A stretch of DNA of 64,000 nucleotides from an uncultured Peptococcaceae bacterium (GCA_964637365.1 CAZWWH010000002.1:11528-75527); one strand, 5' to 3'. Positions 6,586 through 24,511 are shown, counted from the stretch's first letter. Numbers and translations: made by a program. The notes: generated by a model from the sequence alone, not told the origin.

Positions 6586-6955
6586 ACGTATTTTCCAGAC
6601 TGCTTTGGAAATTTTATTGATATATTTTTCCATATTTCATTCATTTGGTTTCTTCCTGAGCACTCTCCAAATCTTACCTTGACCAAATAAGCTTCGATCT
6701 CTTTACCCTATGCTTTTCCCATATCTTATGATAAGCGCCATTGTCGTATTTTCTTGGAATATACGCAATACCTGCTCAGGATGAAATATGATAGGCGCAG
6801 CTTCCGTCCTTTCTGCGCTGCGCCCTCGGTGCTTCCCCGTGGCCAAAAGCCGCGGGGTATGCCCGGATAATTACAAAATGCTATTGTAATTGTACATTTT
6901 GAAATAAATAAGTTTTTGCCGGTAGAAATTAATGCCGGAAATGAAAGGAGATTTT

Positions 6956-8554
6956 ATGAAAAGAATGAAACGATTCATCGCACCCTTACTTGCTCTTGTC
7001 ATGGTAATATCTTTTGCCTTCGGTGTCACAGCCGCCGAAATCAATGCCGATGATGCCTCTAACAGCTATGTTTATCTAACAATGGAGAAATTTACTTTAG
7101 GGCAGGAATGTATTTTTGCACCTATTGCCATTCCCTGGGAGGAGGGAATGACTGCCGCATCCATTCTCGTCGATAAGCTTGGGGACGACAATTATCAATG
7201 CAGTGGCTCTTTAGACGGTGGTGACCTTTACATTTCAGCAGTAAAAGACCCCGATCAAGGTAGTGTTGATATGCCGAAGGTTATTTATGATGCAGTAATG
7301 GGCAGCCAAAATGTAATCTCTGCCCGTAATGAGAAGGAATGGCTCGGAGAGTTTGATTATTACAATGAAAGTGGCTGGATGTTGACGGTGAATGATGATT
7401 TTATTGGCACAAGCTCTGCTGCTCATACATTACAGCCCGGTGACGTTGTCCGTTGGCAATTTACCGTGTATGGCCTTGGTGCTGATTTGGGTAACAGTAA
7501 CGAATCTTTTGGTGGATATGATAAATTAATTGATGCTGCCAACAAAGATGACCTGGTAAAATCCTTGGCAAATGCTACACAAAAAGATACCAACGCATAT
7601 AAAAATGCCTATTCAGTGTTGGTCAATGCTGCGGCAACCCAGGCAGAGGTTGATACTGCAAAGGCCAATTTGGATGCCAATGCTGATGTTCCTTTGAATC
7701 TTTCTTCTTGTGAAAAACAGCACATTATTTTTACGAATGGGCTTCAGTTAAGTGCTACTGAACTTCAACTTGCACCTAAGGAAACTGAAAAATTAACCGC
7801 CGTGGTAACGCCTGACACGGCTAATTTCTCCGAGGTGGTCTGGAAATCTTCAAGAAAAGCTGTCGCCACTGTTTCGGCTGACGGCACTGTAACCGCAGTC
7901 GGTGAGGGGACGGCTAAAATTACCGCTACTACCAAAGATGGCGGAGCATCTGCTGTTTGTGAGGTTACAGTAAAAAAAGATGATGCCCCGGTAGAGATAA
8001 AACTCCCGTTCTCTGATGTTCAGAAAAAGGATTGGTTTTATACTGATGTTCTTTATGTTTACGAGAATGAAATCATGAATGGTGTCAGTAATACTGTGTT
8101 TGGTCCCAATGACGACTTGACCCGTGGTCAATTTGTTGCTATTTTAGGTCGTTATGCTGGGATTAAAGATAGCTCTAAAGGTTCGCCTGCTTCTAAAACC
8201 TTCGATGATGTGAAAACAACAGAGTACTATGCTTCTCATGTGAAGTGGGCCATAGATCAGGGGATTACTAATGGCGTAAGTGAAAAGAATTTTGCCCCTA
8301 AAGAAAAAATCACTAGAGAACAAATGGCTGCAATGATGTACCGCTACGCAAAGGCGATTGGTGTTACATTACCTGGGGCCGATAGCGACAAGTTTTCTGA
8401 TGACAATAAGATTTCCTCCTATGCTAAGGATGCAGTATATAGCATGAAAGCTGCAGGCATCTTAGGCGGTATGGGGAATAACACTTTTGCGCCTAAGGGT
8501 AATACCACTCGGGCCCAAGCAGCTAAAGTGATTCATGTGTTCATGGAACTGTAA
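6956..8554 (+). CDS. Surface protein: signal peptide + DUF4430 (transcobalamin-like beta domain) + Big_2 + 3x SLH domains
   Basis: Signal peptide MKRMKRFIAPLLALVMVISFAFGVTAA. DUF4430-type motif GEFDYYNESGWMLTVNDD...LQPGDVVRWQFTVYGLGADLG. Big_2 Ig-like segment (7720-7980). Three C-terminal SLH repeats (F.DV..W....I...G...G...F.P....TRAQ). RBS GAAAGGAG. Confidence 0.7.
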   Translation: MKRMKRFIAPLLALVMVISFAFGVTAAEINADDASNSYVYLTMEKFTLGQECIFAPIAIPWEEGMTAASILVDKLGDDNYQCSGSLDGGDLYISAVKDPDQGSVDMPKVIYDAVMGSQNVISARNEKEWLGEFDYYNESGWMLTVNDDFIGTSSAAHTLQPGDVVRWQFTVYGLGADLGNSNESFGGYDKLIDAANKDDLVKSLANATQKDTNAYKNAYSVLVNAAATQAEVDTAKANLDANADVPLNLSSCEKQHIIFTNGLQLSATELQLAPKETEKLTAVVTPDTANFSEVVWKSSRKAVATVSADGTVTAVGEGTAKITATTKDGGASAVCEVTVKKDDAPVEIKLPFSDVQKKDWFYTDVLYVYENEIMNGVSNTVFGPNDDLTRGQFVAILGRYAGIKDSSKGSPASKTFDDVKTTEYYASHVKWAIDQGITNGVSEKNFAPKEKITREQMAAMMYRYAKAIGVTLPGADSDKFSDDNKISSYAKDAVYSMKAAGILGGMGNNTFAPKGNTTRAQAAKVIHVFMEL

Positions 8555-9066: not shown

Positions 9067-9073
9067 TATAATT

Positions 9074-9102: not shown

Positions 9103-9231
9103 GTTAAGATATTATAACTATTCACTATAAAATTTTGCGTTTAAAGTTACTACATATTTAAGGGTAACCAGAGCAAAACTTATAATTATAAAATAAGGCT
9201 GTCCGGTTTTCCGAACAGCCTTACTACTCGA

Positions 9232-12102
9232 TTATGAGGGGACATCAGGATTTTTGTTAGGGCCACGCTTTTGTTTTTTATGGACAATCGTGGCGGTTAT
9301 GATAATGCCTGCTGCAAGTACAATGACTACAATAGAGCCAATGGCAATCCAACGGTGTTGCTCCCAGAATGATGTTAATTCTTCGGTAACACTATTATTA
9401 CCATGATCTGATTTGGTGTCATCGGTGTCTAACAGTGAACCTGCTTTGGCTCTTTTGGCAATAAAGTAATCACTACAATGCTCAATGATAAATTTCGTTG
9501 CTCCACCTTCGGCTGAAACTTTGTCAATAAATTCGGCCCTCATTTCTTCTGGTACGTAGTAAAAGAGGAGATATTTGCCGTCGGCTAATGATGTCTCCGG
9601 AATTTCAACCAAAGCTGGTCCTGGCATTTCACCTTCATGCATGAAGTGGATGATAAAAGGATCATCCGCTAGCTTACGGATGTTATCTTCGTTTTCACAA
9701 TCTTCTTTGCCAAAATAAATTTGCATATTAAAGTCCATGGGATTTTTGATGTCAGTGCCATTGAACGTAATGACGTAAGATTCCCCATTCTCAGTGGTAC
9801 CATCAAGCACCAAATTGATATTTTTTCCCTTAATTTCTTCAAATACTGATTTGGGTACTATGCCATTAGAAAAGTCGGCGCTGGTATACATGCGCCTTTT
9901 GCCGGAAACTTTCCTTTGAGAGAGAATATAGTCGCCTCCACGGTTTGCTTCGAACGTGGCTTGCATATTTTTGAGTGTTACTCCTACTTTTTCAAAGTCC
10001 TTTTTGGCTGCATTGTAGTAGTACATGGAGTATTTGCTTCCCGTTAAATCGACACTAATGGTGACGGTTGCCTTACCGGGGAATTCACCTTGGTGGGGGA
10101 AGTTCAGATAATAGGCGTCGGAAACAAAATCTCTAATTTCTTGTCCGTTGGCGGGAGTTGTCAGGATTCGGGCATCAAAATCCATGGGATTACTAATTTC
10201 TTTGCCTTTAAACGTGATGGTATATGCGTATTTATTATCGCACACACCTGTAATGGTATATTCCACATCTTTTCCGGAGATTAGTTCGAAAACCTCTTTG
10301 ATGACAATATTCTTTTTCAGGCCTTCGATAATTTTGCGGGCCAATAGTAAATCATCACTATGTTCCAGACTTTTTTGCTCTTTTTCTGAAAGCTTTAAAT
10401 AGCGCTGATAAAGAGCGTCTACCATGTTTTCATCGCTAAGTCTTATATTAATGGGATTGATAGATGCGGCAATATCTGCGTCCAATTTTTTTGCCGCATC
10501 GCTTATCGGATCGTCAGGATTATCCGAGGGATCGTTAATTTTGCTCAATTCTTTGATCTCGTCCAAAAGAATTTGCAGTTTACCGCGGTTGCTGATTTTT
10601 GACTTGTCGCTGCTGTTTAAGAGATTGTATTTTTGAGCGGTATCATAAATACTTTTAATATCTTCTTTCGTGGCGGTTTCCGGTAACTGCTCAATACTTT
10701 TGATGATGCTGTTAATTGTTTCTTCGGAACTGTTCGCTTCTTCTCTGAGATCGAAGAGGGGACGGAATCCATTGACAAAGCGGTAATATGCAACTAAGGC
10801 ATATCTTGCCTGGTCTGTTGCTATATGATTGCTTTCTCCAGCTGTTGCGTTGGAGCTGCCGTCTTTAGAGTAGGAATGAATAAAACCACCGTCTTTGCTG
10901 TTATAGTAGGCCAACAAGCCATCTAAAACAGTTTTTCCATTGTCAGTGATGAATCTTTGATCGCTAAGAGGATCGATCTGTAAGGAGCACAATGCCACCA
11001 GAACTTGAGCAGTGCTTTCTGCGTTGGGTACAGAAATGCTACCAAAGCCACCATCGTCTAGCTGCATTGCGGAAAGACGCGCCAATGCTTCGTCAACAAT
11101 GGTCTTGATCGTTTTCCCATTGGAATATACGGTAGTGGAGTCATAATAGGGAGCCAATGCCTGGAGTACCAAAGCAGTAATATCTGTATCACTGGAAGAA
11201 CTCGATAGAGCAAAACCGCCATCAGATAGTTGCTTAGATATCAAATATTCCAGAATCGCTTCTCTGGTTGTCGTAGCGTTTTCTGGAACCTCATATCGTT
11301 CGGAATCCAATGCGATTAAACCCCATGCCGCGCCATTAATACCTTGTTTCCACATGGGAGTCATGATACTCTGATAGATTCCGTCAGAAACTAAGTTTAC
11401 AGCGCTGCCATTTTTATCTTTCCCGAAGGATTTTGCATCTCTGCCCAAAGCGTTCAATGCCAAAATCGGACGGTGATAGTCGGTAGCTACGCGGTCACTC
11501 AGCCATCCTTTGGTTTGATAGGATTTGGTAACATAGGACTCAAGAGCCGTTAAGTAAGCTTCCGTGTCATCGGGATAACCAAATCTTGCAATGCCAAATG
11601 CCAGCCAATCGCAATCTGTGGTTCCGACACCAGCCAATGAACTTTCATTTAAGGCATAAAAGTTTTCCTGCTTTGACCAGTCAATCGTATTTTTAATGGC
11701 ATTTTCTAAATCATCGCTCAGATTGCGCACCGTACGTAGAGTGCCCGATAATTCCAATGATCCCTCTTCAACTGAACGATTATCGCCTTCCACAGTGGTG
11801 CTTTCAGATGATACGACACTGTGATCGATAATATTGTTGTAACCAGACAAAAATGTACGGAGCTGGAGTGATGTTACGCCTGCGCTATAAATATAGGCTT
11901 GGGAAGTACGTCCTGCCAGTTCGTCATAGCCCACATCCCAAATAAAATGTCCCCTTTGTGTCATGATTTGTTGCAGCGATTGGGCAGTAGTTGTGTCTTG
12001 GGTTTCTTCTTGATTGGATGATTCGTCATTTTTATCTCCACATCCCGTGAAAAAGAGACATAGCGCAAGACACAATACAACAATCAACGAGTGTTTTCTC
12101 AT
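9232..12102 (-). CDS. Large surface lipoprotein: alpha/alpha-toroid (prenyltransferase/terpene-cyclase-like) repeats + two tandem beta-domain repeats + C-terminal TM anchor
   Basis: Lipobox LFFTGCGD. Repeated Q/K.LsDGGF motifs (ISKQLSDGGFALS, AMQLDDGGFGS, YNSKDGGFIHS) typical of PF00432/SQHop-cyclase toroid repeats. Two ~140-aa internal repeats sharing ITF.G..I.NPMDF. C-terminal hydrophobic helix followed by KKQKRGP. RBS AGAGGGAG. Riboswitch directly upstream. Confidence 0.65.
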   Translation of the reverse strand: MRKHSLIVVLCLALCLFFTGCGDKNDESSNQEETQDTTTAQSLQQIMTQRGHFIWDVGYDELAGRTSQAYIYSAGVTSLQLRTFLSGYNNIIDHSVVSSESTTVEGDNRSVEEGSLELSGTLRTVRNLSDDLENAIKNTIDWSKQENFYALNESSLAGVGTTDCDWLAFGIARFGYPDDTEAYLTALESYVTKSYQTKGWLSDRVATDYHRPILALNALGRDAKSFGKDKNGSAVNLVSDGIYQSIMTPMWKQGINGAAWGLIALDSERYEVPENATTTREAILEYLISKQLSDGGFALSSSSSDTDITALVLQALAPYYDSTTVYSNGKTIKTIVDEALARLSAMQLDDGGFGSISVPNAESTAQVLVALCSLQIDPLSDQRFITDNGKTVLDGLLAYYNSKDGGFIHSYSKDGSSNATAGESNHIATDQARYALVAYYRFVNGFRPLFDLREEANSSEETINSIIKSIEQLPETATKEDIKSIYDTAQKYNLLNSSDKSKISNRGKLQILLDEIKELSKINDPSDNPDDPISDAAKKLDADIAASINPINIRLSDENMVDALYQRYLKLSEKEQKSLEHSDDLLLARKIIEGLKKNIVIKEVFELISGKDVEYTITGVCDNKYAYTITFKGKEISNPMDFDARILTTPANGQEIRDFVSDAYYLNFPHQGEFPGKATVTISVDLTGSKYSMYYYNAAKKDFEKVGVTLKNMQATFEANRGGDYILSQRKVSGKRRMYTSADFSNGIVPKSVFEEIKGKNINLVLDGTTENGESYVITFNGTDIKNPMDFNMQIYFGKEDCENEDNIRKLADDPFIIHFMHEGEMPGPALVEIPETSLADGKYLLFYYVPEEMRAEFIDKVSAEGGATKFIIEHCSDYFIAKRAKAGSLLDTDDTKSDHGNNSVTEELTSFWEQHRWIAIGSIVVIVLAAGIIITATIVHKKQKRGPNKNPDVPS

Positions 12103-12214
12103 TTTTTCTCCCTCTTTCAGTCTACCAACACTTGTTTGGCGCTGAATATGATCCTTTTGCGTAATTGTTTACGTGAGCGCTATAATTCTCGGCACGAATC
12201 ATGGAGCGCTTCCA

Positions 12215-12476
12215 TATAAATATAAAAGGGTATGGTAAAAAACCATACCCTTTCGCAATCGAATAGAATTCCAGTGATTCCAAATTTGAATACCTAAATT
12301 TTACAAATCTAGCAAATTCGAATCAAAGATACACCAGATTAACCTTTCTTCAGAAGGCATGGTAAGGTCAACCAAATGTTTTCTGGCTCATGCTAAAACG
12401 CAATCACAGTGGCCGGACCGCTGAGGAATCGCACCTCATTACCATTTTGATTACCTGTTACAATATCAAATTATCT
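12215..12476 (-). promoter_or_regulatory. Cobalamin riboswitch with intrinsic terminator (controls the 956-aa lipoprotein gene)
   Basis: Minus-strand core GGTAATGAGGTGCGATTCCTCAGCGGTCCGGCCACTGTGATTGCG. B12-box-like GAGCCAGAAAAC. Terminator AAGGGTATGGT-ttttt-ACCATACCCTT + TTTTAT (plus 12221-12260). Confidence 0.65.
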
Positions 12477-12482
12477 TAAAAT

Positions 12483-12511
12483 ATTATAATAATACTTGTA
12501 TAAAAAGTCAA
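12483..12511 (-). promoter_or_regulatory. Sigma70 promoter (TTGACT-17-TATAAT) for riboswitch c
   Basis: Near-consensus hexamers with a 17-nt spacer on the minus strand. Confidence 0.5.
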
Positions 12512-12604
12512 TACGAATGGGGGTATGGGTATTGGTCAGCGTTAAGAAAAGGAGGGATTTCCCTCCTTTTCTGTTCTATTAGAAGTATAATACATGGACC
12601 TTAA

Positions 12605-13351
12605 TTAAAGAGTATCTTCCATCCAACTCCCGCCTGGCAGATCTCTGCCTAAATCACAGGTATAATTCCATTCAATCACGTCGCCGGCCTGGACTTGATA
12701 ACGGCTGCAGCCATAATTGGGATACCAACTATTAACACAATACATCCAACCGCTCAAATCGCCACAATCAAATTCATATAAATTATTGATGCCTTCGATA
12801 TATGTGGATCCATACATTGGCGTCCAACTATATTCCATATGGATTTTATTATTCTTAGTTTCGCGAAGAAGGATATCAAAGACAGATTCTCCTTCATAGA
12901 ATGTTACGGTTCTGCGAGAAAGAATTACGCCATCGGAGGGGACAAGGCCTTTTTTGTTAGGGTCTAAATCCTCCATGTTGTCAAGAATGGTGGAGCATTT
13001 AATTGATAATGTACACTTAAGGGATTTCGATTTATCGATTTTTTGGTTTTCAGTATCAACAGGTTTGGGCTTTCCTTCAGGAATCGGGTCCGTGTTGTAT
13101 TTGTCCTTCTGGGAATCAGCATCATAGTTGGTGCTGCTTTCAGCCTTTGAGTATTTGTCATAATCGGTGCTGCTTTCATCAACGTCATCGACGTCAATAT
13201 AGCCATCATCATCTGCTTCTGGCTGGGTTTCTGTTGCCGCAACTTCCTTTTCATTTTTGTCTGCGGATTTATCATCTCCGCAAGCGGTGAGCATTAATCC
13301 CAAACTCAGCATCATAATGAGCAGTAGCATGAATATACTTTTTCGCTTCAT
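12605..13351 (-). CDS. Acidic lipoprotein with C-terminal DUF4430 (transcobalamin-like beta) domain
   Basis: Lipobox LMLTACGDD. Long D/E/S-rich low-complexity linker. C-terminal DUF4430-type motif GDLSGWMYCVNSWYPNYGCSRYQVQAGDVIEWNYTCDLGRDLPG. RBS AAAGGAGGAG before the ATG at 13351. Confidence 0.65.
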   Translation of the reverse strand: MKRKSIFMLLLIMMLSLGLMLTACGDDKSADKNEKEVAATETQPEADDDGYIDVDDVDESSTDYDKYSKAESSTNYDADSQKDKYNTDPIPEGKPKPVDTENQKIDKSKSLKCTLSIKCSTILDNMEDLDPNKKGLVPSDGVILSRRTVTFYEGESVFDILLRETKNNKIHMEYSWTPMYGSTYIEGINNLYEFDCGDLSGWMYCVNSWYPNYGCSRYQVQAGDVIEWNYTCDLGRDLPGGSWMEDTL

Positions 13352-13889
13352 TTTCTGACTCCTCCTTTTATTTTTGCCGTTTCTTATAAAAAAACACAGT
13401 CCTTTCGGTATCTGTGCCAAATGGTCACAGGCACAGAGTAATCACATTTGACATAAAATCAAATGTTTGATATCACCTTGTGCCGATCAGTGACGTCCGT
13501 ATTTCTTTATGATTTAATTTTAACCATTCAGGTCAAAAATGTCAATGGCGAGTGATTGCTATCTCGTAGAAAATTAGCTTTGGGTGATAACAAATTGGAA
13601 TCACCCGCGCGTTGACAAAAAACGGAAATATGCTATTCTTGTCTCATTGAAAGGGACGAACGTATATATTTAAGGTGCCATTATTGTTTCATACTGTGAT
13701 AATGCCGATATCTCAGTATGAAATGGCGCCGAATGATATTTAATAAGGAGGGTCGAGGTAATTTATTGATTTCTTTTAATTGGCGCGCCGAGATTAAGGA
13801 AGTCGTTGCCACATGGATTTATGAGATGTGGCGAGTTTTGTGTTTAGCAGTAAAAGCACCGGCTATGATATTAAGAAAGGTATTATATT

Positions 13890-15158
13890 ATGAAATTAAA
13901 AAGAGTTTTTTGTTGCATTGTCATGATCGGGGCAATGCTGATTTTTGGTTCTTTGGCTGCAATGGCTGCCAACATGGAATCCCCCGTTGAAAAGTTCAAG
14001 GATATTGATACAAAAGCATGGTATATTGATGATGTGGAATATGTTTATGAAAACGGTATTATGAATGGGATGTCCGATACCATGTTTGGGCCAAATCTAG
14101 CGGTGACCCGAGGCCAGTTTGTGACTATGTTGGGACGTCTTGTAGAGATTGATGATTCCAGTTTGGAATCACCCCAAAATACTATTTTTAGTGATGTAAA
14201 ACCGACGTCTTATTATGCATCCCATATTGCGTGGGCTACCGAGTACGGTATTGTCAATGGTATGTCCAGTACAACCTTTGCTCCGGAACAAAAAGTAACC
14301 CGAGAACAAATGGCTACCATGATGGCACGTTTTTCCAAGGTATTCCAAATCTATATTCCTACCAAAGCAGATACCGCCTTTGCTGATGATGCTGCGATCA
14401 GTAAGTATGCGAAGGAAGCGGTATACGGCTTAAAAAATATCGGAATCCTTGATGGTGTTGGCAAAAATATTTTTGACCCCAAGGGGGCTACCACCCGTGC
14501 TGCCGCTGCCAAAGTGATGCACTATTATATGGAATATGAACCTGCTGATACCGCAGTCGTTTCTATTGAAAAATTCACATTGGGTCAGGGGTATATTTTA
14601 GAACCCACGGTTGTTCCTCTTAATAATGAAGCTACGGCTGATAGTGTTCTTCGTGCCGCGGCCAAGGAAGTTGGTATTGATTTGAAGTTCCATGAAAAAT
14701 CTGGTTATCTTACTTTTGTAAAAGATGAGTGCAATGCTCCTCTGAAGATACCTGATTTTATTGCTGATGAGATGGCAAAAGACGAAGTGACGGTTGATAA
14801 TCGTGCAGATGACGCATGGCTTGGTGAATATGATTATACTGCTCAAGCCGGTTGGCTGTATTGGCATAATAATGCCACGGCTTCTACTACTGCTAATCAG
14901 TGTGCCGTCAGCGATGGCGATGTGGTACGTTTCCAATTTTCCATTAGCGGATGGGGTGCTGACTTGGGACGCAGTGATGCTTGGACCGTTGCCTATCGTG
15001 AGTCTGCTAATAAGGATGAATTGATGAAAGCAGTTGCCTGGGCAAATGATACCCAAAGCGAAGCATACGCCAATGCACTGAAAGTGCTCACGAATATCGA
15101 AAGTAGTCAAGAAGCGGTTGACGCGGCCCTAGCTGCCATGCCCTTACTTGCAGATTAA
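13890..15158 (+). CDS. Surface protein: signal peptide + 3x SLH + C-terminal DUF4430 domain
   Basis: Signal peptide with AMAAN cleavage site. Three SLH repeats. DUF4430-type motif GEYDYTAQAGWLYWHNN...VSDGDVVRFQFSISGWGADLG. Paralogous to the C-terminal part of the DUF4430 region in the 6956 gene. Confidence 0.7.
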   Translation: MKLKRVFCCIVMIGAMLIFGSLAAMAANMESPVEKFKDIDTKAWYIDDVEYVYENGIMNGMSDTMFGPNLAVTRGQFVTMLGRLVEIDDSSLESPQNTIFSDVKPTSYYASHIAWATEYGIVNGMSSTTFAPEQKVTREQMATMMARFSKVFQIYIPTKADTAFADDAAISKYAKEAVYGLKNIGILDGVGKNIFDPKGATTRAAAAKVMHYYMEYEPADTAVVSIEKFTLGQGYILEPTVVPLNNEATADSVLRAAAKEVGIDLKFHEKSGYLTFVKDECNAPLKIPDFIADEMAKDEVTVDNRADDAWLGEYDYTAQAGWLYWHNNATASTTANQCAVSDGDVVRFQFSISGWGADLGRSDAWTVAYRESANKDELMKAVAWANDTQSEAYANALKVLTNIESSQEAVDAALAAMPLLAD

Positions 15159-15178: not shown

Positions 15179-15601
15179 ATGGCAAAAATTACTGATGAAG
15201 TTTTGAATGAAATCCGTGCCAGAGCCAAGGAACTGCAACGTGCTCCTATGAAAGCTGAGATGAAGCAAAAGAGATCATACTATGGCGGTTGGAATCATGC
15301 CGTAACCCTCGCTGGTTTATGTCCTTATGATGGTCATCGTCGGGATGAAATCCGTCCTCCTATGAATGGGAAAGAATACACCAATTCCGAGCTATTGTCT
15401 TTTGTGCGTCAGGCAGCAAAAAACAATATTGCTCCGCAAAAACGTGATGTGCCGGAATATCCCTTTATTGAATACCGCTTTGGTCCTTGGGCTAAATTGA
15501 TGAAAAAAATGGGTTATCGTTATTTAAGAGAAGAACAGTCTGATCCGCGTCCTTCCTGGGTGCATACGATTCAGCGGTCAAGAGATGAGAGATTGGCCTA
15601 G
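15179..15601 (+). CDS. Hypothetical cytoplasmic protein (140 aa), co-oriented with the SLH-DUF4430 gene
   Basis: ORF with RBS GAAAGAGGGA, 20 nt after the upstream stop. No recognisable family. Confidence 0.4.
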   Translation: MAKITDEVLNEIRARAKELQRAPMKAEMKQKRSYYGGWNHAVTLAGLCPYDGHRRDEIRPPMNGKEYTNSELLSFVRQAAKNNIAPQKRDVPEYPFIEYRFGPWAKLMKKMGYRYLREEQSDPRPSWVHTIQRSRDERLA

Positions 15602-15605: not shown

Positions 15606-15652
15606 TAAGCTTTATAAGAAACAGGAGATACCTTAAGGTATCTCCTGTTTTT
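15606..15652. terminator. Bidirectional intrinsic terminator
   Basis: AACAGGAGATACC-ttaa-GGTATCTCCTGTT + TTTT, between convergent genes. Confidence 0.65.
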
Positions 15653-15722: not shown

Positions 15723-16910
15723 TTATGGATCCATCATACCGTATTTTTTTTTGACACGGTCTAACTTTTCTATCATTGGTTTTGAGAGAATCCAAAGAAA
15801 GAAAAAGGTGGCGACACCATGAACTGCATCAACGGGAATACCTGAAAGATATATGGCCAATGCCCCAGTTTTTTCCGTATTTGTTGTTAGAACTGTCCAT
15901 GTGTTTAATAGCAGCCCATAAATTACTTGTGCGCAGAAATAACCGAAAAAGCAAAGTGGAAGCCGTTTCTTAGAAAGCCAGCCTTTTTTGAATAACACCC
16001 CGGCCAAAAAGCCAATGATACCAAAGGCAAACATTTGCCACGGCGTCCAAGGGCCTTGACCAAAGAAAAAGTTCGAAACAAAAGCCGTCATCGCACCGCA
16101 GAGAAATCCCGCCTCAGCACCCAAACAAACACCGGAAATGGCAACAATTGCCCAAATTGGTTTTACATAGGGAAACATAAAGAAAGCTGCCCGTCCTAAG
16201 ATGGCGATTCCCACCATAACAGCGATGACTACCAGCTCTCTAGCTTCAGGCTTGCGCTGTTCAAAGATCATGAAGAAAGGGATCATCGTTTCAATGATAA
16301 TCATCAAACTGATAAAGTAGTATTGACGGTCATTCATAAAGAGGATGCCAAAAGCAATGGTAGCGGGGATAACCACTAGAATAAGGAGTGCAGCCATAGC
16401 CAAACGCTTCTTAACCCGGCGTATTAGAAGCACCATGAAAGCTACCAATAACGCTACGACCATAGCGATACACCCCTGTCCCATGACAAAGGTTGCTTTT
16501 GGATCTACCTGAGTTTTTATGACATGGGAAACATAAAAGTATGTGATAAAAACGAATACTACAGCTAAAATGGAACTGAAAAAGGTCCAGATGGTATTAT
16601 CACTATTTTTTGTAGCTTTGTTCTTGTTAAAAAGCATGGCCAGGCCAAAGGCCATGGTAATGGTGGTGGCCAATCCCATAATTCTAATGACTGAGATAAG
16701 GGATTTCGCTGTTTCCGGAATTGCTTTTGCAATATCGGATTTATAGAACTTAGTTATAAAATTATAGAGACTGAAGGTAATGGTCTGGTTATCCGCCGTT
16801 ACAGTAATAAAGGGCATTGCTACGCAGACCAGAGCCACGATCAAGGCTGTGCGGGCGATTTCCTTTATGGTATGATTTTCATTTATTTTGTCTGTAAGTT
16901 CTGCTTGCAT
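15723..16910 (-). CDS. ECF-transporter S-component-like polytopic membrane protein, paralog 2 (~11 TM)
   Basis: About 11 predicted TM helices. First 295 codons are nucleotide-identical to the upstream paralog. C-terminal ~100 aa diverge. Last gene of the riboswitch-controlled ECF operon. Confidence 0.55.
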   Translation of the reverse strand: MQAELTDKINENHTIKEIARTALIVALVCVAMPFITVTADNQTITFSLYNFITKFYKSDIAKAIPETAKSLISVIRIMGLATTITMAFGLAMLFNKNKATKNSDNTIWTFFSSILAVVFVFITYFYVSHVIKTQVDPKATFVMGQGCIAMVVALLVAFMVLLIRRVKKRLAMAALLILVVIPATIAFGILFMNDRQYYFISLMIIIETMIPFFMIFEQRKPEARELVVIAVMVGIAILGRAAFFMFPYVKPIWAIVAISGVCLGAEAGFLCGAMTAFVSNFFFGQGPWTPWQMFAFGIIGFLAGVLFKKGWLSKKRLPLCFFGYFCAQVIYGLLLNTWTVLTTNTEKTGALAIYLSGIPVDAVHGVATFFFLWILSKPMIEKLDRVKKKYGMMDP

Positions 16911-16930
16911 AATTCCACGACATCCTCATT
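16027..16930 (-). repeat. Copy B of a ~0.9 kb 100%-identical tandem direct repeat (gene-conversion tract)
   Basis: Identical to 17255-18158, including 20 nt upstream of the start codon. Confidence 0.8.
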
Positions 16931-16944
16931 TATATATTAAAATA

Positions 16945-18138
16945 TTATGATTCCATCATACCGTATTTCTTTTTGATGCGATCTAATTTTTCTATCATTG
17001 GTTTTGAGAGAACCCATAGAAAAAAGAAGGTGGAAATTCCGTAAACCATGTTGACGGGAAAGCCTGAAATATAATAGGCTAAGGGACCTGTGGTGCTAGT
17101 ATCAAAAGCTAAAGTGAAAATTGTACAGGTATCCATAATGAGCCCATAGACAATTAATGCACTAAAAAAGCCAAAGATGCAAAGTGGAAGCCGCTTCTTA
17201 GAAAGCCAGCCTTTTTTAAAGAATATGCCTGCCAAGAAGCCAATAAGCCCTAATGCAAACATTTGCCACGGCGTCCAAGGGCCTTGACCAAAGAAAAAGT
17301 TCGAAACAAAAGCCGTCATCGCACCGCAGAGAAATCCCGCCTCAGCACCCAAACAAACACCGGAAATGGCAACAATTGCCCAAATTGGTTTTACATAGGG
17401 AAACATAAAGAAAGCTGCCCGTCCTAAGATGGCGATTCCCACCATAACAGCGATGACTACCAGCTCTCTAGCTTCAGGCTTGCGCTGTTCAAAGATCATG
17501 AAGAAAGGGATCATCGTTTCAATGATAATCATCAAACTGATAAAGTAGTATTGACGGTCATTCATAAAGAGGATGCCAAAAGCAATGGTAGCGGGGATAA
17601 CCACTAGAATAAGGAGTGCAGCCATAGCCAAACGCTTCTTAACCCGGCGTATTAGAAGCACCATGAAAGCTACCAATAACGCTACGACCATAGCGATACA
17701 CCCCTGTCCCATGACAAAGGTTGCTTTTGGATCTACCTGAGTTTTTATGACATGGGAAACATAAAAGTATGTGATAAAAACGAATACTACAGCTAAAATG
17801 GAACTGAAAAAGGTCCAGATGGTATTATCACTATTTTTTGTAGCTTTGTTCTTGTTAAAAAGCATGGCCAGGCCAAAGGCCATGGTAATGGTGGTGGCCA
17901 ATCCCATAATTCTAATGACTGAGATAAGGGATTTCGCTGTTTCCGGAATTGCTTTTGCAATATCGGATTTATAGAACTTAGTTATAAAATTATAGAGACT
18001 GAAGGTAATGGTCTGGTTATCCGCCGTTACAGTAATAAAGGGCATTGCTACGCAGACCAGAGCCACGATCAAGGCTGTGCGGGCGATTTCCTTTATGGTA
18101 TGATTTTCATTTATTTTGTCTGTAAATTCTGCTTGCAT
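16945..18138 (-). CDS. ECF-transporter S-component-like polytopic membrane protein, paralog 1 (~11 TM)
   Basis: Same architecture as paralog 2. Start overlaps the ecfA 3' end by 28 nt, implying translational coupling. The C-terminal half (ARELVVIAVMVGIAILGRAAF..., GQGPWTPWQ) resembles ECF S-components. Confidence 0.55.
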   Translation of the reverse strand: MQAEFTDKINENHTIKEIARTALIVALVCVAMPFITVTADNQTITFSLYNFITKFYKSDIAKAIPETAKSLISVIRIMGLATTITMAFGLAMLFNKNKATKNSDNTIWTFFSSILAVVFVFITYFYVSHVIKTQVDPKATFVMGQGCIAMVVALLVAFMVLLIRRVKKRLAMAALLILVVIPATIAFGILFMNDRQYYFISLMIIIETMIPFFMIFEQRKPEARELVVIAVMVGIAILGRAAFFMFPYVKPIWAIVAISGVCLGAEAGFLCGAMTAFVSNFFFGQGPWTPWQMFALGLIGFLAGIFFKKGWLSKKRLPLCIFGFFSALIVYGLIMDTCTIFTLAFDTSTTGPLAYYISGFPVNMVYGISTFFFLWVLSKPMIEKLDRIKKKYGMMES

Positions 18139-18158
18139 AATTCCACGACATCCTCATT
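17255..18158 (-). repeat. Copy A of the ~0.9 kb 100%-identical tandem direct repeat
   Basis: Identical to 16027-16930. Its upstream 20 nt lie inside the ecfA coding 3' end. Confidence 0.8.
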
Positions 18159-19790
18159 ATTAACTGCATTGGTAAACACATGCCTCGATAGCCGGTTGGC
18201 AGATGTTGTATAAAAGCTATTGCCGGAGAAAAATCGGTTTGGCGTATCGGTGGTAACAATATCGCCATCAAAAAACATAGAGCAGCTGTCACCATAGCGG
18301 GCACAAAACTCAATGTCATGGGATACCATCACTACAGTGACTCCTTGATTGATAAGCTTTTTCAGAATCTCTGCAAGTTTGATTTTAAAGTAATTATCTA
18401 AGCCTTTGGTAGGTTCATCCAGTAATAGAATTTTGGGTTCCAGAAGGAGGATTTTTGCCAAAGCCGCCCTTTGTTGTTCCCCGCCGCTGATATCATATGG
18501 ATGCATTTGCAATAAATCAGTAATTTCCACCAACTCTGCGACGCGGCGAATTTGTTCTGCTTGTTCTTCCTTGGGAATTTTTTTATCTCTCATCATTTCC
18601 CAAAGATCCAGTTCCACTGTTTTTTTCACAAAAAGCGATTGAGGATCCTGAGGAAGCACAGCCAGGTTGCCTACAAATAATTCCTTGTTGGAATATTTTT
18701 TAATTTCTTTCCCATTGATAAGGACTTTTCCTCGATATGGACGCAAAATGCCGCTCATAATTTTCAAAGTAGTGCTTTTGCCTGTGCCATTGCCGCCAAC
18801 AATGCAAAACAAACTAGCCTTAGGAATATCAACGGAAACACCTTTGACGATATCCTTACCTTCCTTTTCGTAGCGGAACCAAACTTCCTTTAAGCGAATC
18901 ACAGGGTCGCTTTTCTTTAATTCTTGATGGTGGTCAATATTTCGATATTTGATTTCCTGATTCTGAAATAGCTCAGAAATCCAGTTGCGTCCCTCTCTTA
19001 CTGTCAATGGACATTCCAGCAGATTGTCAACAGCCGCATAAATCTGCATAGGGGAGGGCATGGCTACAAACATATCATTATCTTCTTGTTTCAATTTGGT
19101 GCCGACATTTCTTGGCGTGTCGTCCGCAATGACTTTGCCTTTTTCCATCACCACAACTCGGTCAGCATAAGGAACGACGTCTTCCAAACGGTGTTCAATG
19201 ATGATGACTGTAGTGCCCACTTCCTGGTTAATTTTCCGAATAGTTGCAAGAAAATCTGCGGCGGCGATGGGATCCAACTGGGAGGTTGGTTCATCTAGTA
19301 GAAGAACGGACGGCTGCATTGCCATAATGGATGCAAGATTCAGTAGTTGCTTCTGACCACCGGAGAGCTCTGTTACATTTTTCATGAACCATGTTTGGAT
19401 TCCAAAATAGCTTGCCATTTCTGCTACTCTCAGACGAATGGTGTGGTTGTCAGCCCCTAAGCTCTCCAATCCAAAAGCTAATTCATGCCAAACTTTATCG
19501 GTGACTATTTGGTTGTCAGGGTTTTGTAAAACAAAACCGATTTGGGAGGATTGTGCGCGAAAGCTAACATCCTCCAGAGATTTACCATAAAACAAAATTT
19601 CCCCGCTTCTAGTGCCGTGGGGGGCCATCACTGTTTTTAGCTGGCGCATCAGGGTACTTTTGCCGCACCCTGATTTTCCGCAAAGTGCAATAAATTCACC
19701 TTGCTCTACTTTTAAATTGACGTGGTCTAACGCTTTTTTTTCTTGTTCTGGATATGAAAACGTCAGATCTTTGATTTCATAACATGCCAT
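18111..19790 (-). CDS. ECF transporter fused duplicated ATPase (EcfA-EcfA')
   Basis: Two ABC ATPase domains: Walker A GKSGCGKST and GGNGTGKST, signatures LSGGQKQ and ISGGEQQR. RBS GGAGG. Confidence 0.8.
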   Translation of the reverse strand: MACYEIKDLTFSYPEQEKKALDHVNLKVEQGEFIALCGKSGCGKSTLMRQLKTVMAPHGTRSGEILFYGKSLEDVSFRAQSSQIGFVLQNPDNQIVTDKVWHELAFGLESLGADNHTIRLRVAEMASYFGIQTWFMKNVTELSGGQKQLLNLASIMAMQPSVLLLDEPTSQLDPIAAADFLATIRKINQEVGTTVIIIEHRLEDVVPYADRVVVMEKGKVIADDTPRNVGTKLKQEDNDMFVAMPSPMQIYAAVDNLLECPLTVREGRNWISELFQNQEIKYRNIDHHQELKKSDPVIRLKEVWFRYEKEGKDIVKGVSVDIPKASLFCIVGGNGTGKSTTLKIMSGILRPYRGKVLINGKEIKKYSNKELFVGNLAVLPQDPQSLFVKKTVELDLWEMMRDKKIPKEEQAEQIRRVAELVEITDLLQMHPYDISGGEQQRAALAKILLLEPKILLLDEPTKGLDNYFKIKLAEILKKLINQGVTVVMVSHDIEFCARYGDSCSMFFDGDIVTTDTPNRFFSGNSFYTTSANRLSRHVFTNAVNNEDVVELCKQNLQTK

Positions 19791-20653
19791 TTAACATCCT
19801 CCATTATATCAATCACCATGGGGAAAAAACATAGAAAACCGTAGGCAATGTAAACAAATATCGCCAGCGGAGTTGTTTCATTCATGATGAACAATGGGCT
19901 GTACGAGATAAAAATCTTGCCTATTGCCACCATAATAAAGGCGAATAGTGTCGGAATTATAATAGAGGCAATCACAATGTAATCTCTGGTATCGAAACGG
20001 AAAATAGAAAAGCTGGTGCGCCCCGGAAGTCCATAACCTCGGGAACGCATGGAATCCGCTGTTTCAATTCCATTTTCCAATGCCCATGTTGTCATAATTG
20101 ATATGATTTTCATACCGTTTTTGGCCTTTTCAACGAGATTTCCTTCAGTCGCATCCCGACCCATACATTTTTGCCCATTAGAAATTACTTTGATTTGTGC
20201 TTTGAATTTCGGAACAAAACGCAGCACCATGGATAGTACCAAAGAAATTGCGGGAATGACCCGGCCAAAAAGGTAGATAAATTTATCTGATGTCATCACT
20301 GCGTTATAGCAGGAAAACCACATGATAACTGTAACAAACATTGTGGCGGAGGCGAGCCCGTAAATCAATGATTCCAAAGTTAACGGATTACCGCTGGGAA
20401 AATAAGTGAGAATCGTAGCGCCCTGATGATTGAAAAGAGGATTCATGACGGCTGCGAGAATTAAAAGCGGAAGCATTGCGCAGAGATTAAACAGCAGCGC
20501 CTTTTTTCCATTTAGATAAATAGAATAGGTTATAGCAGCCACGAAGGATATTGCGAGAAAAACTGGCTGCATCATAAACATGGTAAATAAAATGACAATA
20601 AGAAAAAATGAAAAATTTATAATTGGATGAAGCGTAGAAAAAGCGTCTTTCAT
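19763..20653 (-). CDS. ECF transporter transmembrane (T) component, CbiQ/EcfT family
   Basis: Polytopic membrane protein with the EcfT signature region ...ADSMRSRGYGLPGRT... RBS GGAGG 8 nt upstream of ATG (MKDAFST...). Overlaps the ecfA start. Confidence 0.7.
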   Translation of the reverse strand: MKDAFSTLHPIINFSFFLIVILFTMFMMQPVFLAISFVAAITYSIYLNGKKALLFNLCAMLPLLILAAVMNPLFNHQGATILTYFPSGNPLTLESLIYGLASATMFVTVIMWFSCYNAVMTSDKFIYLFGRVIPAISLVLSMVLRFVPKFKAQIKVISNGQKCMGRDATEGNLVEKAKNGMKIISIMTTWALENGIETADSMRSRGYGLPGRTSFSIFRFDTRDYIVIASIIIPTLFAFIMVAIGKIFISYSPLFIMNETTPLAIFVYIAYGFLCFFPMVIDIMEDVKWHVMKSKI

Positions 20654-20699
20654 TGGGAAACCTCCAAACAGAATCCTTCCGCAACAAAAAACGCTTGCA

Positions 20700-20882
20700 A
20701 TAAAAAAATCCTGCACCGAGCGCAGGACAATAGGGTACCACTGAAACCTCAGTCACGGAAGGCTTGGTAAATACAGCAAACAAAGTTTTCTGGCTTCCGA
20801 GTTTATGGCTCGTATCACAGTGGCCGGACCGCCGGGGAGTCTAACCCCGTTACCTTATGTCATTGCATTTCGATATTTGCTT
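20700..20882 (-). promoter_or_regulatory. Cobalamin riboswitch with intrinsic terminator controlling the ECF operon
   Basis: Minus-strand core GGTAACGGGGTTAGACTCCCCGGCGGTCCGGCCACTGTGATACG. B12-box-like GAAGCCAGAAAAC. Terminator CCTGCGCTCGGTGCAGG + T7 immediately upstream of the ecfT RBS. Confidence 0.6.
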
Positions 20883-20889
20883 TTTAATA

Positions 20890-20918
20890 ATCATAACAAA
20901 TTTTTTCGCTTTGCACAA
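20890..20918 (-). promoter_or_regulatory. Putative sigma70 promoter with extended -10 (TTGTGC-17-TGtTATGAT)
   Basis: Minus-strand hexamers with 17-nt spacer and a TG extended -10 element. Confidence 0.35.
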
Positions 20919-21135
20919 GCCCTTTTCTTGAAAAACTCTTTTCCTTGCTGTTGCTAAATCTTTATCTCCATGAATCGTGAAAAACTATCATTTTTAGTAA
21001 GGGTTTTTAACGATCATGTAAAACTTGTTTAAATTCTATTTTGATAATTTTCGATTTGCTTTTTGTGGAAAATTTTGATATTCTATAAAAATAGATTTGC
21101 TTTTCTGCAATACAACTCATGAGGGAGGCCAAAGT

Positions 21136-22623
21136 ATGAATATTTTTAATGAGTTTTTTAATAATAATACCTTATATTTTGATGCCTTTGATAAATTGGT
21201 GGAAGCTGTCTATGTCTGCGATACAAAAGGAAATCTAGTTTACTTTAATAAAACTGCGGAAAAATTAGACCGCTATCTTCTCAAAGATGTTAAAGGTAGG
21301 TCTACTTTTGAGCTTTATGGACTCGATGAAAGCAGCAGTCCTATGCTAAAAGCATTAACTACGGAGCGCCCGATTTATAACGAGGAATTTAAGTATTATG
21401 TGAACGGTAAGGAAAATGTTCAGTTATGTAATGCCGGTCCGATTTATAACGAGGGAAAGCTGGCCGGTGCATATACTGTTCAGTGCGACTTGACTCCCAT
21501 TAAAGATTTTGTGGAAAAGAACATTGCCCTCCAACGGGAAATCATTCATCAGAAGAGCCTTATTACAGCCAATTATCCGGAGAAAGACATTTTCTCCGGT
21601 CTCATAGGGAGCAGCGAGGCCTTTGCCAGATGTAAGGAGTTGGCGCGTCGTGTGTCAAAAACCGATTCTTCTGTGATGCTGGTGGGCAGCACCGGCAGTG
21701 GGAAAGAAGTGTTTGCCCGTGCCATCCATGACTACAGCAACCGCAGGAAAGGACCGTTTCTTGCCTTAAACTGTGCCGCCATCCCAGAAAGTCTCATTGA
21801 AGGAATATTGTTTGGCACCACCAAAGGCGTTTATACCGGTGCTATGGAGAAGGAAGGTCTCCTGGCCCAAGCCGATGGAGGCACGATATTCCTGGATGAA
21901 ATCAACTCCATGCCTTTGGCGTCCCAAGCGAAGCTTTTGCGAGTGTTAGAGGAGAAGAAAATCATGAAGCTAGGCAGCGATAAGGAAAAGGAAATCAATG
22001 TCAAAATCATCAGCAGCACCAATGAGTTTCCCCGGGAAGCCATAAAAAACGGTCATATGCGTGAAGACCTGTTTTATCGTTTATCTGTGGTGCAGATAGT
22101 GATCCCGTCGCTGAGAGAGCGGAAGGATGATATACCGCAGCTGGTTCAACATTTCATAGATAAATACAACAGCCGTTTTCAAAAGAATATATTGGGAGTA
22201 GACGGTGAGGTAATGGAGTATTTTATGAAATTTCCCTGGCCCGGCAATGTACGGCAGTTGAAAGCCTGTGTAGAGTCGGCGATGAACTTTGCGAAGGATG
22301 GTGCCTGGATTACCTTTTCCGATTTGCCTCAGTATGTGTTTGAAAGCTCTGATATGCCAGAGGACCGCTACCGTCAATGGCAGCAAATACGGCATCAGAA
22401 GCCGCCAATTCCAACGCCCACAGCCATTGTGGAGACGAAGACACCGGAGAAAAAACAGGAATTGTCGGAAATGAATCTCATGGATTCCATTTGGATGGAG
22501 GAAAGGGATGAAATTATTCAGGCCTTGCGACAATCAAAAGGTAATATTACCAGGGCGGCAAAGGCATTGGGAATGAGCCGCCAATCATTGTCATATCGTT
22601 TGAAAAAATACCGTCTAAAATAA
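21136..22623 (+). CDS. Sigma54-dependent transcriptional activator (PAS sensor + AAA+ sigma54-interaction + Fis-type HTH)
   Basis: Walker A GSTGSGKE. GAFTGA-like motif GTTKGVYTGA. Arginine-finger region. C-terminal HTH. N-terminal PAS-like domain. RBS GAGGGAGG. Confidence 0.75.
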   Translation: MNIFNEFFNNNTLYFDAFDKLVEAVYVCDTKGNLVYFNKTAEKLDRYLLKDVKGRSTFELYGLDESSSPMLKALTTERPIYNEEFKYYVNGKENVQLCNAGPIYNEGKLAGAYTVQCDLTPIKDFVEKNIALQREIIHQKSLITANYPEKDIFSGLIGSSEAFARCKELARRVSKTDSSVMLVGSTGSGKEVFARAIHDYSNRRKGPFLALNCAAIPESLIEGILFGTTKGVYTGAMEKEGLLAQADGGTIFLDEINSMPLASQAKLLRVLEEKKIMKLGSDKEKEINVKIISSTNEFPREAIKNGHMREDLFYRLSVVQIVIPSLRERKDDIPQLVQHFIDKYNSRFQKNILGVDGEVMEYFMKFPWPGNVRQLKACVESAMNFAKDGAWITFSDLPQYVFESSDMPEDRYRQWQQIRHQKPPIPTPTAIVETKTPEKKQELSEMNLMDSIWMEERDEIIQALRQSKGNITRAAKALGMSRQSLSYRLKKYRLK

Positions 22624-22681
22624 TATTGAATCAAGTAATCGTTGTAATAGGGTTGATTATTTTTTCCAAAAGTAAATAATC

Positions 22682-22740
22682 GTATAAAACCGCAAAAAAT
22701 CGAAGCTGTTGTTGTAAGTCGATTTTTTGCGGTTTTATTT
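22682..22740. terminator. Long bidirectional terminator hairpin
   Basis: AAAACCGCAAAAAATCGA...TCGATTTTTTGCGGTTTTA: ~18-bp inverted repeat with T-tract. Confidence 0.6.
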
Positions 22741-22870
22741 AATATTATTCATTAATTGTCGCACAAGATTTTTGAGCCTAATCTTAAAAATTGTTACATA
22801 CGACTTTCTATGTGAAATAATGCCAGCATAAATGCTTCTTCCTAAATTTTTTATAAAAACTTTCTTTCTT

Positions 22871-22886
22871 TGGCACGGTATTTGCA
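22871..22886 (+). promoter_or_regulatory. Sigma54 (-24/-12) promoter TGGCACggtatTTGCA
   Basis: Perfect match to the TGGCAC-N5-TTGCA consensus, ~100 nt upstream of the MttB-family gene and downstream of the sigma54 activator gene. Confidence 0.65.
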
Positions 22887-22989
22887 GTTATAGAATAACA
22901 AAACAAGATAAAATCGATTTTATTAAGAATTACACATCAGAAACTACACAACAGAGAAAAATTGATGAATGATTTAGGAGGAAATGATT

Positions 22990-24399
22990 ATGGTGCCCAG
23001 ATATCAGCTTTTAACCCAGGAAGACATTGTTAAAATTCACGAAACTTCGATGAGAATTATGGAAAACGTAGGGATCGTTTTCAGCTATGAACCTGCCAGA
23101 GAAATGTTGAAAAAGCATGGCGCAAAAGAAGAAGGACATACCATGTTCTTCCCCCGCAGCATGGTTGAAGAAAAATTGAAAACTGTACCTTCCGCCTTTA
23201 CCCTTCATGGCAGAAATCCTGAAAAAACCATCGAAATTAATACAGTAGACACTTGCTATGCAGGACCTTATGGTTCTCCCTTTGTCACAGATATTGATAA
23301 CGGTCGCCGTTACGGTACTTTGGACGATTTTATCAGAATTGCTAAATTGCAAAATGACCTCTCCAATGTCGATATCATCAGCCATATCGGTTGTGAAGCC
23401 AACGATGTTGATGCCGATATTCGTCACAATGTGATGACCTATTGGAACTTAAAATTGAGCGACAAACCCCTTATGGGCAGCGTCCTTGGTTATGAAGCTG
23501 CAAAACAGTCCATTGAAATGGCAGGGATTGCCAATGGTGGTCTTGATGTTTTGAAAGAAAAAACCGTTATTGCTTCCATTCCCTGCACCTTGACTCCCTT
23601 GAGTTATGATGACAAGATGGCTGGGGCTATCATGGCATATGCTGAATACAATCAGGCTCAGTTGATTAATTCTCTCTCCATTTCCGGTGCAACCACTCCT
23701 GCAACCCTTGCCGGTCTCGTAGCTTTGCAGAATGCTGAAGTTCTTGCCGGTATCGTATTGGCACAGTGTGTAAATCCCGGTTGCCCCATTGTTTATTCTG
23801 CTTCCGGCTCTAATGCCGAAATGAGCACTGGCGCATTGTCCATCGGTTCCCCAGAAGATGCCATTGTTTCTTTAATGAATGGTCAGTTGGCTAAATTCTA
23901 TAATATTCCCTGCCGTATTAGTGGTACTCTCTCCGACTCCAAAGCCTGCGATGCCCAAGCCGGTTTTGAATCCGCTATCACCGGTTTGATGGCTCAGTTG
24001 GCTGGTGGTAACTTCATCCTCCATTCCATGGGGATCATTGAAGCGTATAACTGCACCTCTTATGAAAAAATGATTATTGACAATGAATTGCTTGGCTATT
24101 TTAAACACATTGGCAGAGGTGTAGAGGTTAACGACGAAACCTTGGCTTATGACGTGATTGCTGAAGTTGGTCCTCAGGGCGAATTCCTCTCCAATCCTCA
24201 TACCTTCATGCATTTCCGCAAAGAGTTCTATCGTCCTACCATTACCGACAGACTCAACTATGACCAGTGGAATGCCAATGGCGCTCTTACCATTGAACAG
24301 AGAGCCAACGCTAAATGGAAACAGATGCTGGAAGAATATGTTGAACCTACGCTTCCTGCTGATGTTGATGCTGAATTGAAAAAATACATTGAAAAATAA
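22990..24399 (+). CDS. MttB-superfamily (trimethylamine-type) corrinoid-dependent methyltransferase, non-pyrrolysine member (quaternary amine such as glycine betaine, proline betaine or carnitine)
   Basis: N-terminal region QLLTQEDIVKIHETSMRIMENVGIVF...FPRSMVEEKLKTVPS typical of COG5598/MttB-family TIM-barrel methyltransferases. No in-frame stop, so no Pyl codon. RBS AGGAGG. Confidence 0.7.
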   Translation: MVPRYQLLTQEDIVKIHETSMRIMENVGIVFSYEPAREMLKKHGAKEEGHTMFFPRSMVEEKLKTVPSAFTLHGRNPEKTIEINTVDTCYAGPYGSPFVTDIDNGRRYGTLDDFIRIAKLQNDLSNVDIISHIGCEANDVDADIRHNVMTYWNLKLSDKPLMGSVLGYEAAKQSIEMAGIANGGLDVLKEKTVIASIPCTLTPLSYDDKMAGAIMAYAEYNQAQLINSLSISGATTPATLAGLVALQNAEVLAGIVLAQCVNPGCPIVYSASGSNAEMSTGALSIGSPEDAIVSLMNGQLAKFYNIPCRISGTLSDSKACDAQAGFESAITGLMAQLAGGNFILHSMGIIEAYNCTSYEKMIIDNELLGYFKHIGRGVEVNDETLAYDVIAEVGPQGEFLSNPHTFMHFRKEFYRPTITDRLNYDQWNANGALTIEQRANAKWKQMLEEYVEPTLPADVDAELKKYIEK

Positions 24400-24511
24400 T
24401 CTTAGTTCAATATATGAAGTAAATAGGGAGGGGAATTATCTCCTCCCTAACTTTTCTCAATGAAGAAATATGTAATTAAAGTATGGGGTATACTTTGGAA
24501 AGGATTATAAA

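Follow-up and report, generated by a model that had tools for sequence, protein, structure and literature searches.

A 64,000-nucleotide stretch of DNA from an uncultured Peptococcaceae bacterium (GCA_964637365.1, CAZWWH010000002.1:11528-75527; the whole stretch is referred to as the window) carries on its minus strand a four-gene operon that very probably (we estimate about 80%) encodes a B12-repressed, dedicated (group I) corrinoid importer of the energy-coupling factor (ECF) class and of the CbrUVT type. We base this assignment on the match of the substrate-binding S proteins to CbrT only and on the presence of a cobalamin riboswitch in 11 of 12 related operons. What is new here is the pair of twin mosaic S genes, together with the predicted tetraspan-like domain at the N-terminus of their products, while the T-AA'-S gene order and the gene overlaps are typical of the family.

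Pfam searches detected ECF_trnsprt (PF12822) in both S proteins with 38.5 and 34.8 bits, above the cut-off of 30.7. When S1 was searched as a single sequence against all PDB chains, the only significant match was CbrT (6fnp_A, E 6.2e-8), and a 70-sequence profile of the S family returned the same chain alone (E 1.6e-15); no other S component appeared in either sequence search, and YkoE, whose crystal structure is available (PMC5037267), was absent from the PDB matches even at E <=10. Thus, between the two systems suggested for comparison by the first-pass annotation, Cbr and Yko, the affinity lies with Cbr. CbrT both binds and transports cobalamin and cobinamide (PMC5997447). The AlphaFold2 (AF2) model of S1 reached a predicted local distance difference test (pLDDT) score of 83.4, and its Foldseek matches included RibU, ThiT, FolT, BioY and PanT, with template modelling scores (TM-scores) <=0.73 (target-normalised). 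NCBIfam assigned the S proteins to nothing specific, a folate-family match remaining sub-threshold with 27 bits for a cut-off of 60. At the helix-1 AxxxA position, a motif that has been associated with docking to the ECF module (PMC11109136), S1 and S2 read A230-V-M-V-G234 (AxxxG), the family consensus is AVxAA, and Lactobacillus delbrueckii CbrT has ALLTA.

The energizing components belong to a dedicated ECF module with a fused A-A' ATPase, as had been proposed. In phmmer searches, T matched EcfT chains of the PDB over residues 15-237 with E values from 1.4e-10 (5d3m_D) to 1.3e-5; it gave no match to Pfam CbiQ, and TIGR02454 was weak (17 bits). The second T coupling motif, SRG, is kept across 74 orthologues, and the first is a family-specific GR variant. 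The 559-aa AA' protein contains two Pfam ABC_tran domains and scored 384.6 bits against TIGR04520, ECF_ATPase_1 (cut-off 315), and 353.2 bits against TIGR04521 (cut-off 330).

The listing of open reading frames (ORFs), Pfam and NCBIfam agreed on the order T, fused A-A', S1 and S2 that had been claimed, with all four genes on the minus strand. The ecfT gene (19763..20653, minus) encodes 296 aa from an ATG at 20653, preceded by the ribosome-binding site (RBS) GGAGG at 20661-20665; we prefer this start over the longer ORF call from a GTG at 20716, which is probably too long. It is followed by the fused ATPase gene (18111..19790, minus), whose RBS, GGAGGA, is embedded in the ecfT 3' end, and by S1 (16945..18138, minus; 397 aa), which comprises an N-terminal domain with four transmembrane (TM) helices (residues 1-168), two further TM helices and a CbrT-like S domain of six TM helices (residues 222-395). 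S2 (15723..16910, minus; 395 aa) is its tandem paralogue and carries its own copy of the RBS. Exactly 28 nt are shared at the T/AA' junction and again at the AA'/S1 junction, where the junction sequences place GGAGGA and GAGGA, respectively, before the downstream starts; both overlaps of the duplicated ATPase gene were therefore annotated precisely. The span initially given for the operon, 18111-20882, takes in the leader, T and AA' but excludes both S genes, located at 15723-18138. The operon probably ends at a 12-bp hairpin, ACAGGAGATACC-TTAA-GGTATCTCCTGT (15621..15648, minus), which was read by hand, its T-run being too weak for the terminator scan, and which would be shared with a convergent gene with an HNH repeat. 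The S, T and A genes are contiguous or overlapping on one strand, bounded by the leader terminator and this hairpin, and the ORF listing contained no small N-like gene in the operon.

To place the operon among its relatives, we used an S-family profile search that gave at least 563 confirmed species-level matches among the first 600 pattern matches, the best 80 of which were inspected. Together with 80 metagenome loci and five found via individual homologues, these 80 species-representative genome loci make up the 165 related loci (designated by L numbers) considered here. The T-AA'-S order is conserved in them wherever the contig reaches T and AA', and the same 28-nt overlaps are common; hence the order and overlaps that the first-pass annotation had singled out are real, but they represent the family norm and no peculiarity of the window. 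The riboswitch family RF00174 scored above its gathering threshold at the operon 5' end in 11 of the 12 loci checked with a visible end (L003, L005, L083, L084, L085, L032, L027, L030, L009, L047 and L023), L051 being the one without it, and the closest relatives with a long S (L003, L005 and L085) reached 60-74 bits. In other Bacillota, this operon almost always starts behind a cobalamin riboswitch, and importers of its kind are common in Firmicutes. No experimental characterisation of this S or operon family was found in the literature searched.

The twin S genes

S1 and S2 form a 1228-nt tandem repeat that includes a nearly identical tract, located at 17255..18158 (minus) in the S1 copy, where it starts 20 nt before the ATG and extends to nt 884 of the gene, and at 16027..16930 (minus) in the S2 copy. 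In a DNA alignment, this tract showed one mismatch in ~904 nt, and the remaining ~300 nt were ~72% identical. The first 45 nt of the S2 copy (16930-16886) derive from the final 15 codons of AA', as tblastn recovered AA' residues 545-559 there at 100% identity; since the S2 start region is thus a relic of the AA' 3' end, S2 inherited its RBS. Nei-Gojobori estimates of the rates of synonymous (dS) and non-synonymous (dN) substitution separated both parts: codons 1-295 gave dS 0.005, dN 0.001 and dN/dS 0.289, with one synonymous and one non-synonymous difference, whereas codons 296-397 gave dS 1.35, dN 0.196 and dN/dS 0.145. The near-zero dS of the 5' tract, compared with that of the 3' part, suggests that S1 and S2 are old tandem paralogues and that recent gene conversion made their first three quarters alike.

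The divergent part corresponds to helices 4-6 of the S domain. Here, strongly conserved family residues are replaced in S1 (F296L, I298L, L306F and H366Y) but kept in S2; for instance, S1 has Tyr366 where 94% of the family, S2 and L. delbrueckii CbrT have a His just before the C-terminal helix. The S1-type C-terminal module (residues 296-397) is 84% identical to that of protein P0002, the sole S of locus L002, and the S2-type module is 100% identical to that of P0001, encoded in locus L001. The latter comes from a metagenome-assembled genome (GCA_036306385.1) whose flank is 98.6% identical to the window, on a 5-kb short-read contig with a single S gene (L001:1378-2565). This gene is itself a mosaic: nt 1-550 equal S1/S2, nt 551-800 are ~18% different from both, and nt 851-1188 equal S2, which suggests either that S alleles continue to recombine or that a repeat was collapsed. 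The presence of a single S in L001 could result from short-read repeat collapse, unequal crossover or further recombination.

The duplicated S gene had been described as atypical, and so it proved: no tandem second S was found in any of the 165 related loci, and the second S of L095, 38% identical, lies ~4 kb away. This rarity, together with the absence of the exact S1 protein from the public gene collection, would fit an explanation in which S1 and S2 are not a functional pair, S2 being a redundant partial duplicate in the course of being lost, or the 904-nt tract an assembly or polishing artefact made from two strain alleles. An effect of this second kind is possible because the near-identical L001 shows a single and differently mosaic S, whose 3' part is that of S2 and whose nt 551-800 match neither gene. 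We nevertheless regard the explanation as improbable. Both ORFs are intact, and the S2 RBS lies inside the AA' 3' relic, as expected of a true gene-sized tandem duplication. Furthermore, the synonymous divergence of the 3' parts is saturated while their dN/dS is 0.145, so these parts have been long maintained by selection, and each C-terminal module has its own closest relative (P0002 for S1, at 84%, and P0001 for S2, at 100%). Finally, a perfect repeat of 550-900 nt would be expected to collapse in a short-read contig of 5 kb such as that of L001.

The N-terminal domain of the long S proteins

The core of the S family measures ~242 aa, with two additional helices besides the six of the S domain. 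Among 85 loci, about 28 carry this short form and seven a separate S of ~400 aa like that of the window (L001-L005, L079 and L085), while in about 49 the A, A' and S components are fused in one ORF of 650-950 aa, mostly ~880-920 aa. The composition of the fusion, two ABC_tran domains plus ECF_trnsprt, was confirmed by Pfam in three loci (L009:3030-5705, L040:2955-5705 and L060:3048-5702), with about 46 further loci of the same kind, and its linker is a charged stretch followed by two TM helices. A covalent A-A'-S fusion is not mentioned in the literature searched; its existence implies that S need not leave the module in this S family. As to the oversized S proteins reported as atypical, they are indeed long, but the family core is already ~242 aa and only the N-terminal domain of about 160 aa is special.

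This domain, residues 1-168 (17635-18138 in S1), accounts for the extra 160-170 residues. Its relatives comprise 6 representative clusters among 1.84 billion proteins, all of them within this S subfamily. Modelled alone and with confidence by AF2 (pLDDT 82.6), the domain is predicted to have four TM helices and a small outward-facing beta-sheet; helix 1 is followed by a beta-hairpin and helix 3 by one more strand. The top 50 Foldseek matches in the PDB were all tetraspans of the claudin, TARP, GSG1L or GARLH4 kind, or Escherichia coli LetA, with modest scores (E 2e-3 to 5e-2; query-normalised TM-score 0.36-0.59, mostly ~0.5-0.6). The model therefore predicts a claudin/TARP-like fold in the sense of structural resemblance, not of membership in these families. 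Separately, we considered the domain as a degenerate second S domain or as a relative of the fusion linker, and rejected both, with blastp giving E >1 and Pfam only weak matches to DUF4293 and Tmemb_40.

Leader, cargo and genomic neighbourhood

The leader of the operon contains an aptamer and a terminator, preceded by a candidate sigma-70-type promoter (20890..20918, minus) that was read by hand, with a weak -35 hexamer (TTGTGC, 20918-20913), a 17-nt spacer and TATGAT at 20895-20890; a sigma-70 consensus scan reported no site upstream of the aptamer. The aptamer (20763..20894, minus) is a short-form cobalamin riboswitch without the P6 extension, which in a permissive local Rfam scan matched RF00174 with 27.0 bits (E 7.8e-5), the gathering score being 31.5. 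Accordingly, an Rfam scan of the whole window at gathering thresholds reported nothing upstream of ecfT; it did report cobalamin riboswitches at 8901-9062 and 12356-12486 and a flavin mononucleotide (FMN) riboswitch at 56556-56669, and no thiamine pyrophosphate (TPP) riboswitch was found in the window. The leader aligns to the full RF00174 model (positions 1-189) with the P6 extension replaced by 8 nt, the core kept and its GCCACUG and AGCCAG stretches intact, several non-canonical pairs being flagged in P1 and P2. Further, its core hardly differs from that of the short riboswitch at 12356-12486 (35 bits) and aligns with the above-threshold copies of related operons. The weak match is credible because related operons carry RF00174 at their 5' end, and it is on this conjunction, a sub-threshold match here and above-threshold matches at the same position in 11 of 12 relatives, that the claimed B12 riboswitch stands.

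The intrinsic terminator (20708..20728, minus), GTCCTGCGC-TCG-GTGCAGGAT followed by TTTTTTATTG, was reported by the terminator scan with 9 pairs, 5 of them GC, and its hairpin appears in the minimum free energy (MFE) fold of the leader. It lies 35 nt downstream of the aptamer; it had been described as abutting the ecfT RBS, from which it is in fact separated by ~43 nt.

Some points weigh against a corrinoid importer under B12 control with two differing S components. The substrate call is drawn from regulation and context together with an identity to CbrT of 20-25%, and the difference in specificity between S1 and S2 is deduced from where their differences fall. The tandem S-S arrangement was seen in one assembly, and a 98.6%-identical strain has one S. 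The score of the leader riboswitch is under the curated Rfam cut-off, and the leader fold offered no convincing antiterminator. In addition, transporter genes for cobalt and for B12 precursors are likewise found under B12 riboswitch control.

This last point, the low identity to CbrT and the lack of a specific NCBIfam assignment for S would all be compatible with the import of something else, such as cobalt or nickel (as by CbiMNQO), the base of a lower ligand, which is the predicted cargo of CblT, or a further B12-related precursor. We consider a cargo of this kind quite unlikely. No CbiM or CbiN signature was detected by Pfam or NCBIfam, the sole PDB relative of S, CbrT, takes cobalamin and cobinamide (PMC5997447), and the operon family is linked to proteins with DUF4430 (PMC4350170) and alpha-toroid domains. 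A cobalt or other metal transporter proper (CbiMNQO, NikMNQO) was rejected on the same lack of CbiM/CbiN signatures in S1 and S2.

Cobalamin riboswitches that are short and lack P6 form a class known to function, with an expected preference for MeCbl or AqCbl. It is thus hardly probable that the leader is a decayed riboswitch remnant and the operon constitutive or otherwise controlled, for example from the divergent sigma-54 activator region, a view favoured by the sub-threshold score, the non-canonical P1/P2 pairs and the missing P6 extension, but opposed by the intact conserved core, nearly identical to the above-threshold copy at 12356-12486, by a good terminator at the expected distance and by the riboswitch control of 11 of 12 orthologous operons.

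DUF4430 and alpha-toroid domains are the types that make up eukaryotic B12 carriers. Among 85 related loci, 57 have a DUF4430 gene directly upstream of T, and genes for SLH or alpha-toroid proteins are often found further upstream. The DUF4430 domain has been discussed in B12 binders (PMC4350170). In the window, the DUF4430 gene is detached from ecfT, in contrast with most relatives, and a B12-scavenging locus at 6932-15158 is arranged around three DUF4430 proteins: one with Big_2 and SLH domains (6932..8554, plus), a lipoprotein (12605..13420, minus) and one with SLH (13890..15158, plus). Within it, a 956-aa lipoprotein with a sub-threshold Pfam match to the prenyltransferase alpha-alpha-toroid (9232..12102, minus) lies behind the riboswitch at 12356-12486.

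A promoter-like site (9102-9074) and terminator-like hairpins (8861-8836, 8673-8654 and 8622-8589) accompany the other, strong cobalamin riboswitch of this locus (8901-9062, minus; 71 bits), and no ORF longer than 54 aa was found downstream of it on the same strand. Transcripts reading through would be antisense to the 3' end of the gene at 6932..8554 (plus), and the region 8589-9062 is, by analogy with EutX/Rli55 or AspocR, a candidate for a B12-controlled small or antisense RNA.

Divergent from the operon (21097-27532) are genes for a PAS/sigma-54 activator (21097..22623), an MttB-family methyltransferase (22984..24399), and MFS and BCCT transporters. In locus L085, the ECF operon is likewise found alongside a sigma-54 activator, a corrinoid protein and a pyrrolysine-type dimethylamine methyltransferase with a PYLIS element; taken together, both neighbourhoods indicate a corrinoid-hungry methylotrophic anaerobe. 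The organism is rich in genes for corrinoid-dependent methyltransferases, with MttB-family genes adjoining the operon, and for this reason corrinoid supply is likely to be physiologically important. On the other side of the operon, a small protein with a homing-endonuclease-associated HNH_repeat domain is encoded at 15179-15601 (plus), convergent to S2, and occupies the same place in L001. The FMN riboswitch (56556-56669, plus; 108 bits), upstream of ORFs starting at 56681, is unrelated to the operon.

Proposed mechanism and known systems

Under the assignment as a B12-repressed corrinoid importer, plentiful corrinoid would occupy the aptamer and let the terminator form, so that transcription would stop before ecfT. 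When corrinoid is scarce, read-through would allow T, AA' and S1 to be translated in a coupled manner via the 28-nt overlaps, and S2 would be translated from its own duplicated RBS. T and AA' would constitute one motor able to dock either S1 or S2. In S components, EcfT docks on a conserved surface of helices 1-3, and substrate specificity resides mostly in helices 4-6. S1 and S2 are identical in the N-terminal domain and in helices 1-3 of the S domain, which would be the half that contacts EcfT, and they would be old, selectively maintained variants in the substrate half. From the position of the divergence in helices 4-6, we infer a shared dock with different pockets, and S1 and S2 most likely provide a single motor with two corrinoid specificities or affinities.

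A bolder version of this idea is offered tentatively, and we would not bet on it. Gene conversion would still be at work to keep the docking halves of both S proteins the same, and selection would preserve the differences between their binding halves (helices 4-6, with the exchange of a nearly invariant His for Tyr), resulting in a two-cassette system for different corrinoids (e.g., cobamides with different lower ligands, or cobinamide). In addition, the tetraspan domain might serve as an outward platform that takes corrinoid from SLH- or lipid-anchored DUF4430/alpha-toroid binders, by analogy with the BtuG/BtuB hand-off of Gram-negative bacteria.

To our knowledge, corrinoid uptake by Gram-positive anaerobes is poorly characterised, and a single ECF system has been studied, the small CbrT (group II) from a lactobacillus. 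Our analysis points to a large family of dedicated operons under riboswitch control that occur together with genes for transcobalamin-like surface proteins, and the twin S proteins of the window, with the same dock and different binding halves, could be used to map the determinants of corrinoid selectivity and to examine S exchange on a dedicated module.

Among known systems, that with a solved structure closest to the window is ECF-CbrT of L. delbrueckii (PDB 6FNP; PMC5997447), the sole detectable PDB homologue of the S domain (222-395). They have in common the His before the C-terminal helix, present in S2 and 94% of the family, and the expected substrates are likewise cobalamin and cobinamide. 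CbrT has 182 aa, uses a shared group II EcfAA'T module and is encoded in the cluster nrdJ-cbrS-cbrT-pduO, whereas the window has S proteins of ~396 aa with six extra N-terminal helices, a dedicated module with fused A-A', two S genes and riboswitch control.

YkoEDC, the thiamine-related group I ECF transporter of Bacillus subtilis (PMC5037267), resembles the window in its riboswitch control and in its dedicated module, with the fused ATPase YkoD and the T component YkoC; however, it has one S, YkoE, and is preceded by a THI-box, in contrast to the B12-type riboswitch of the window, which lacks a TPP element. As for the N-terminal domain, the prediction shares the tetraspan layout of claudin, TARP, GSG1L and LetA, with which it has no sequence similarity.

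The counterpart of the whole operon is the predicted CbrUVT system, which the Rodionov group lists as an ECF B12 transporter (PMC6593275); TCDB family 3.A.1.32, CbrT, is listed in PMC3654945. The tandem S genes, the four-TM N-terminal domain and the A-A'-S fusions of the relatives were not found described in the literature searched. Both have a dedicated T, a duplicated ATPase, a CbrT-like S and a B12-regulated operon, and the window operon is most simply regarded as a member of that predicted system. Our findings thus extend a known system and do not overturn its current understanding.

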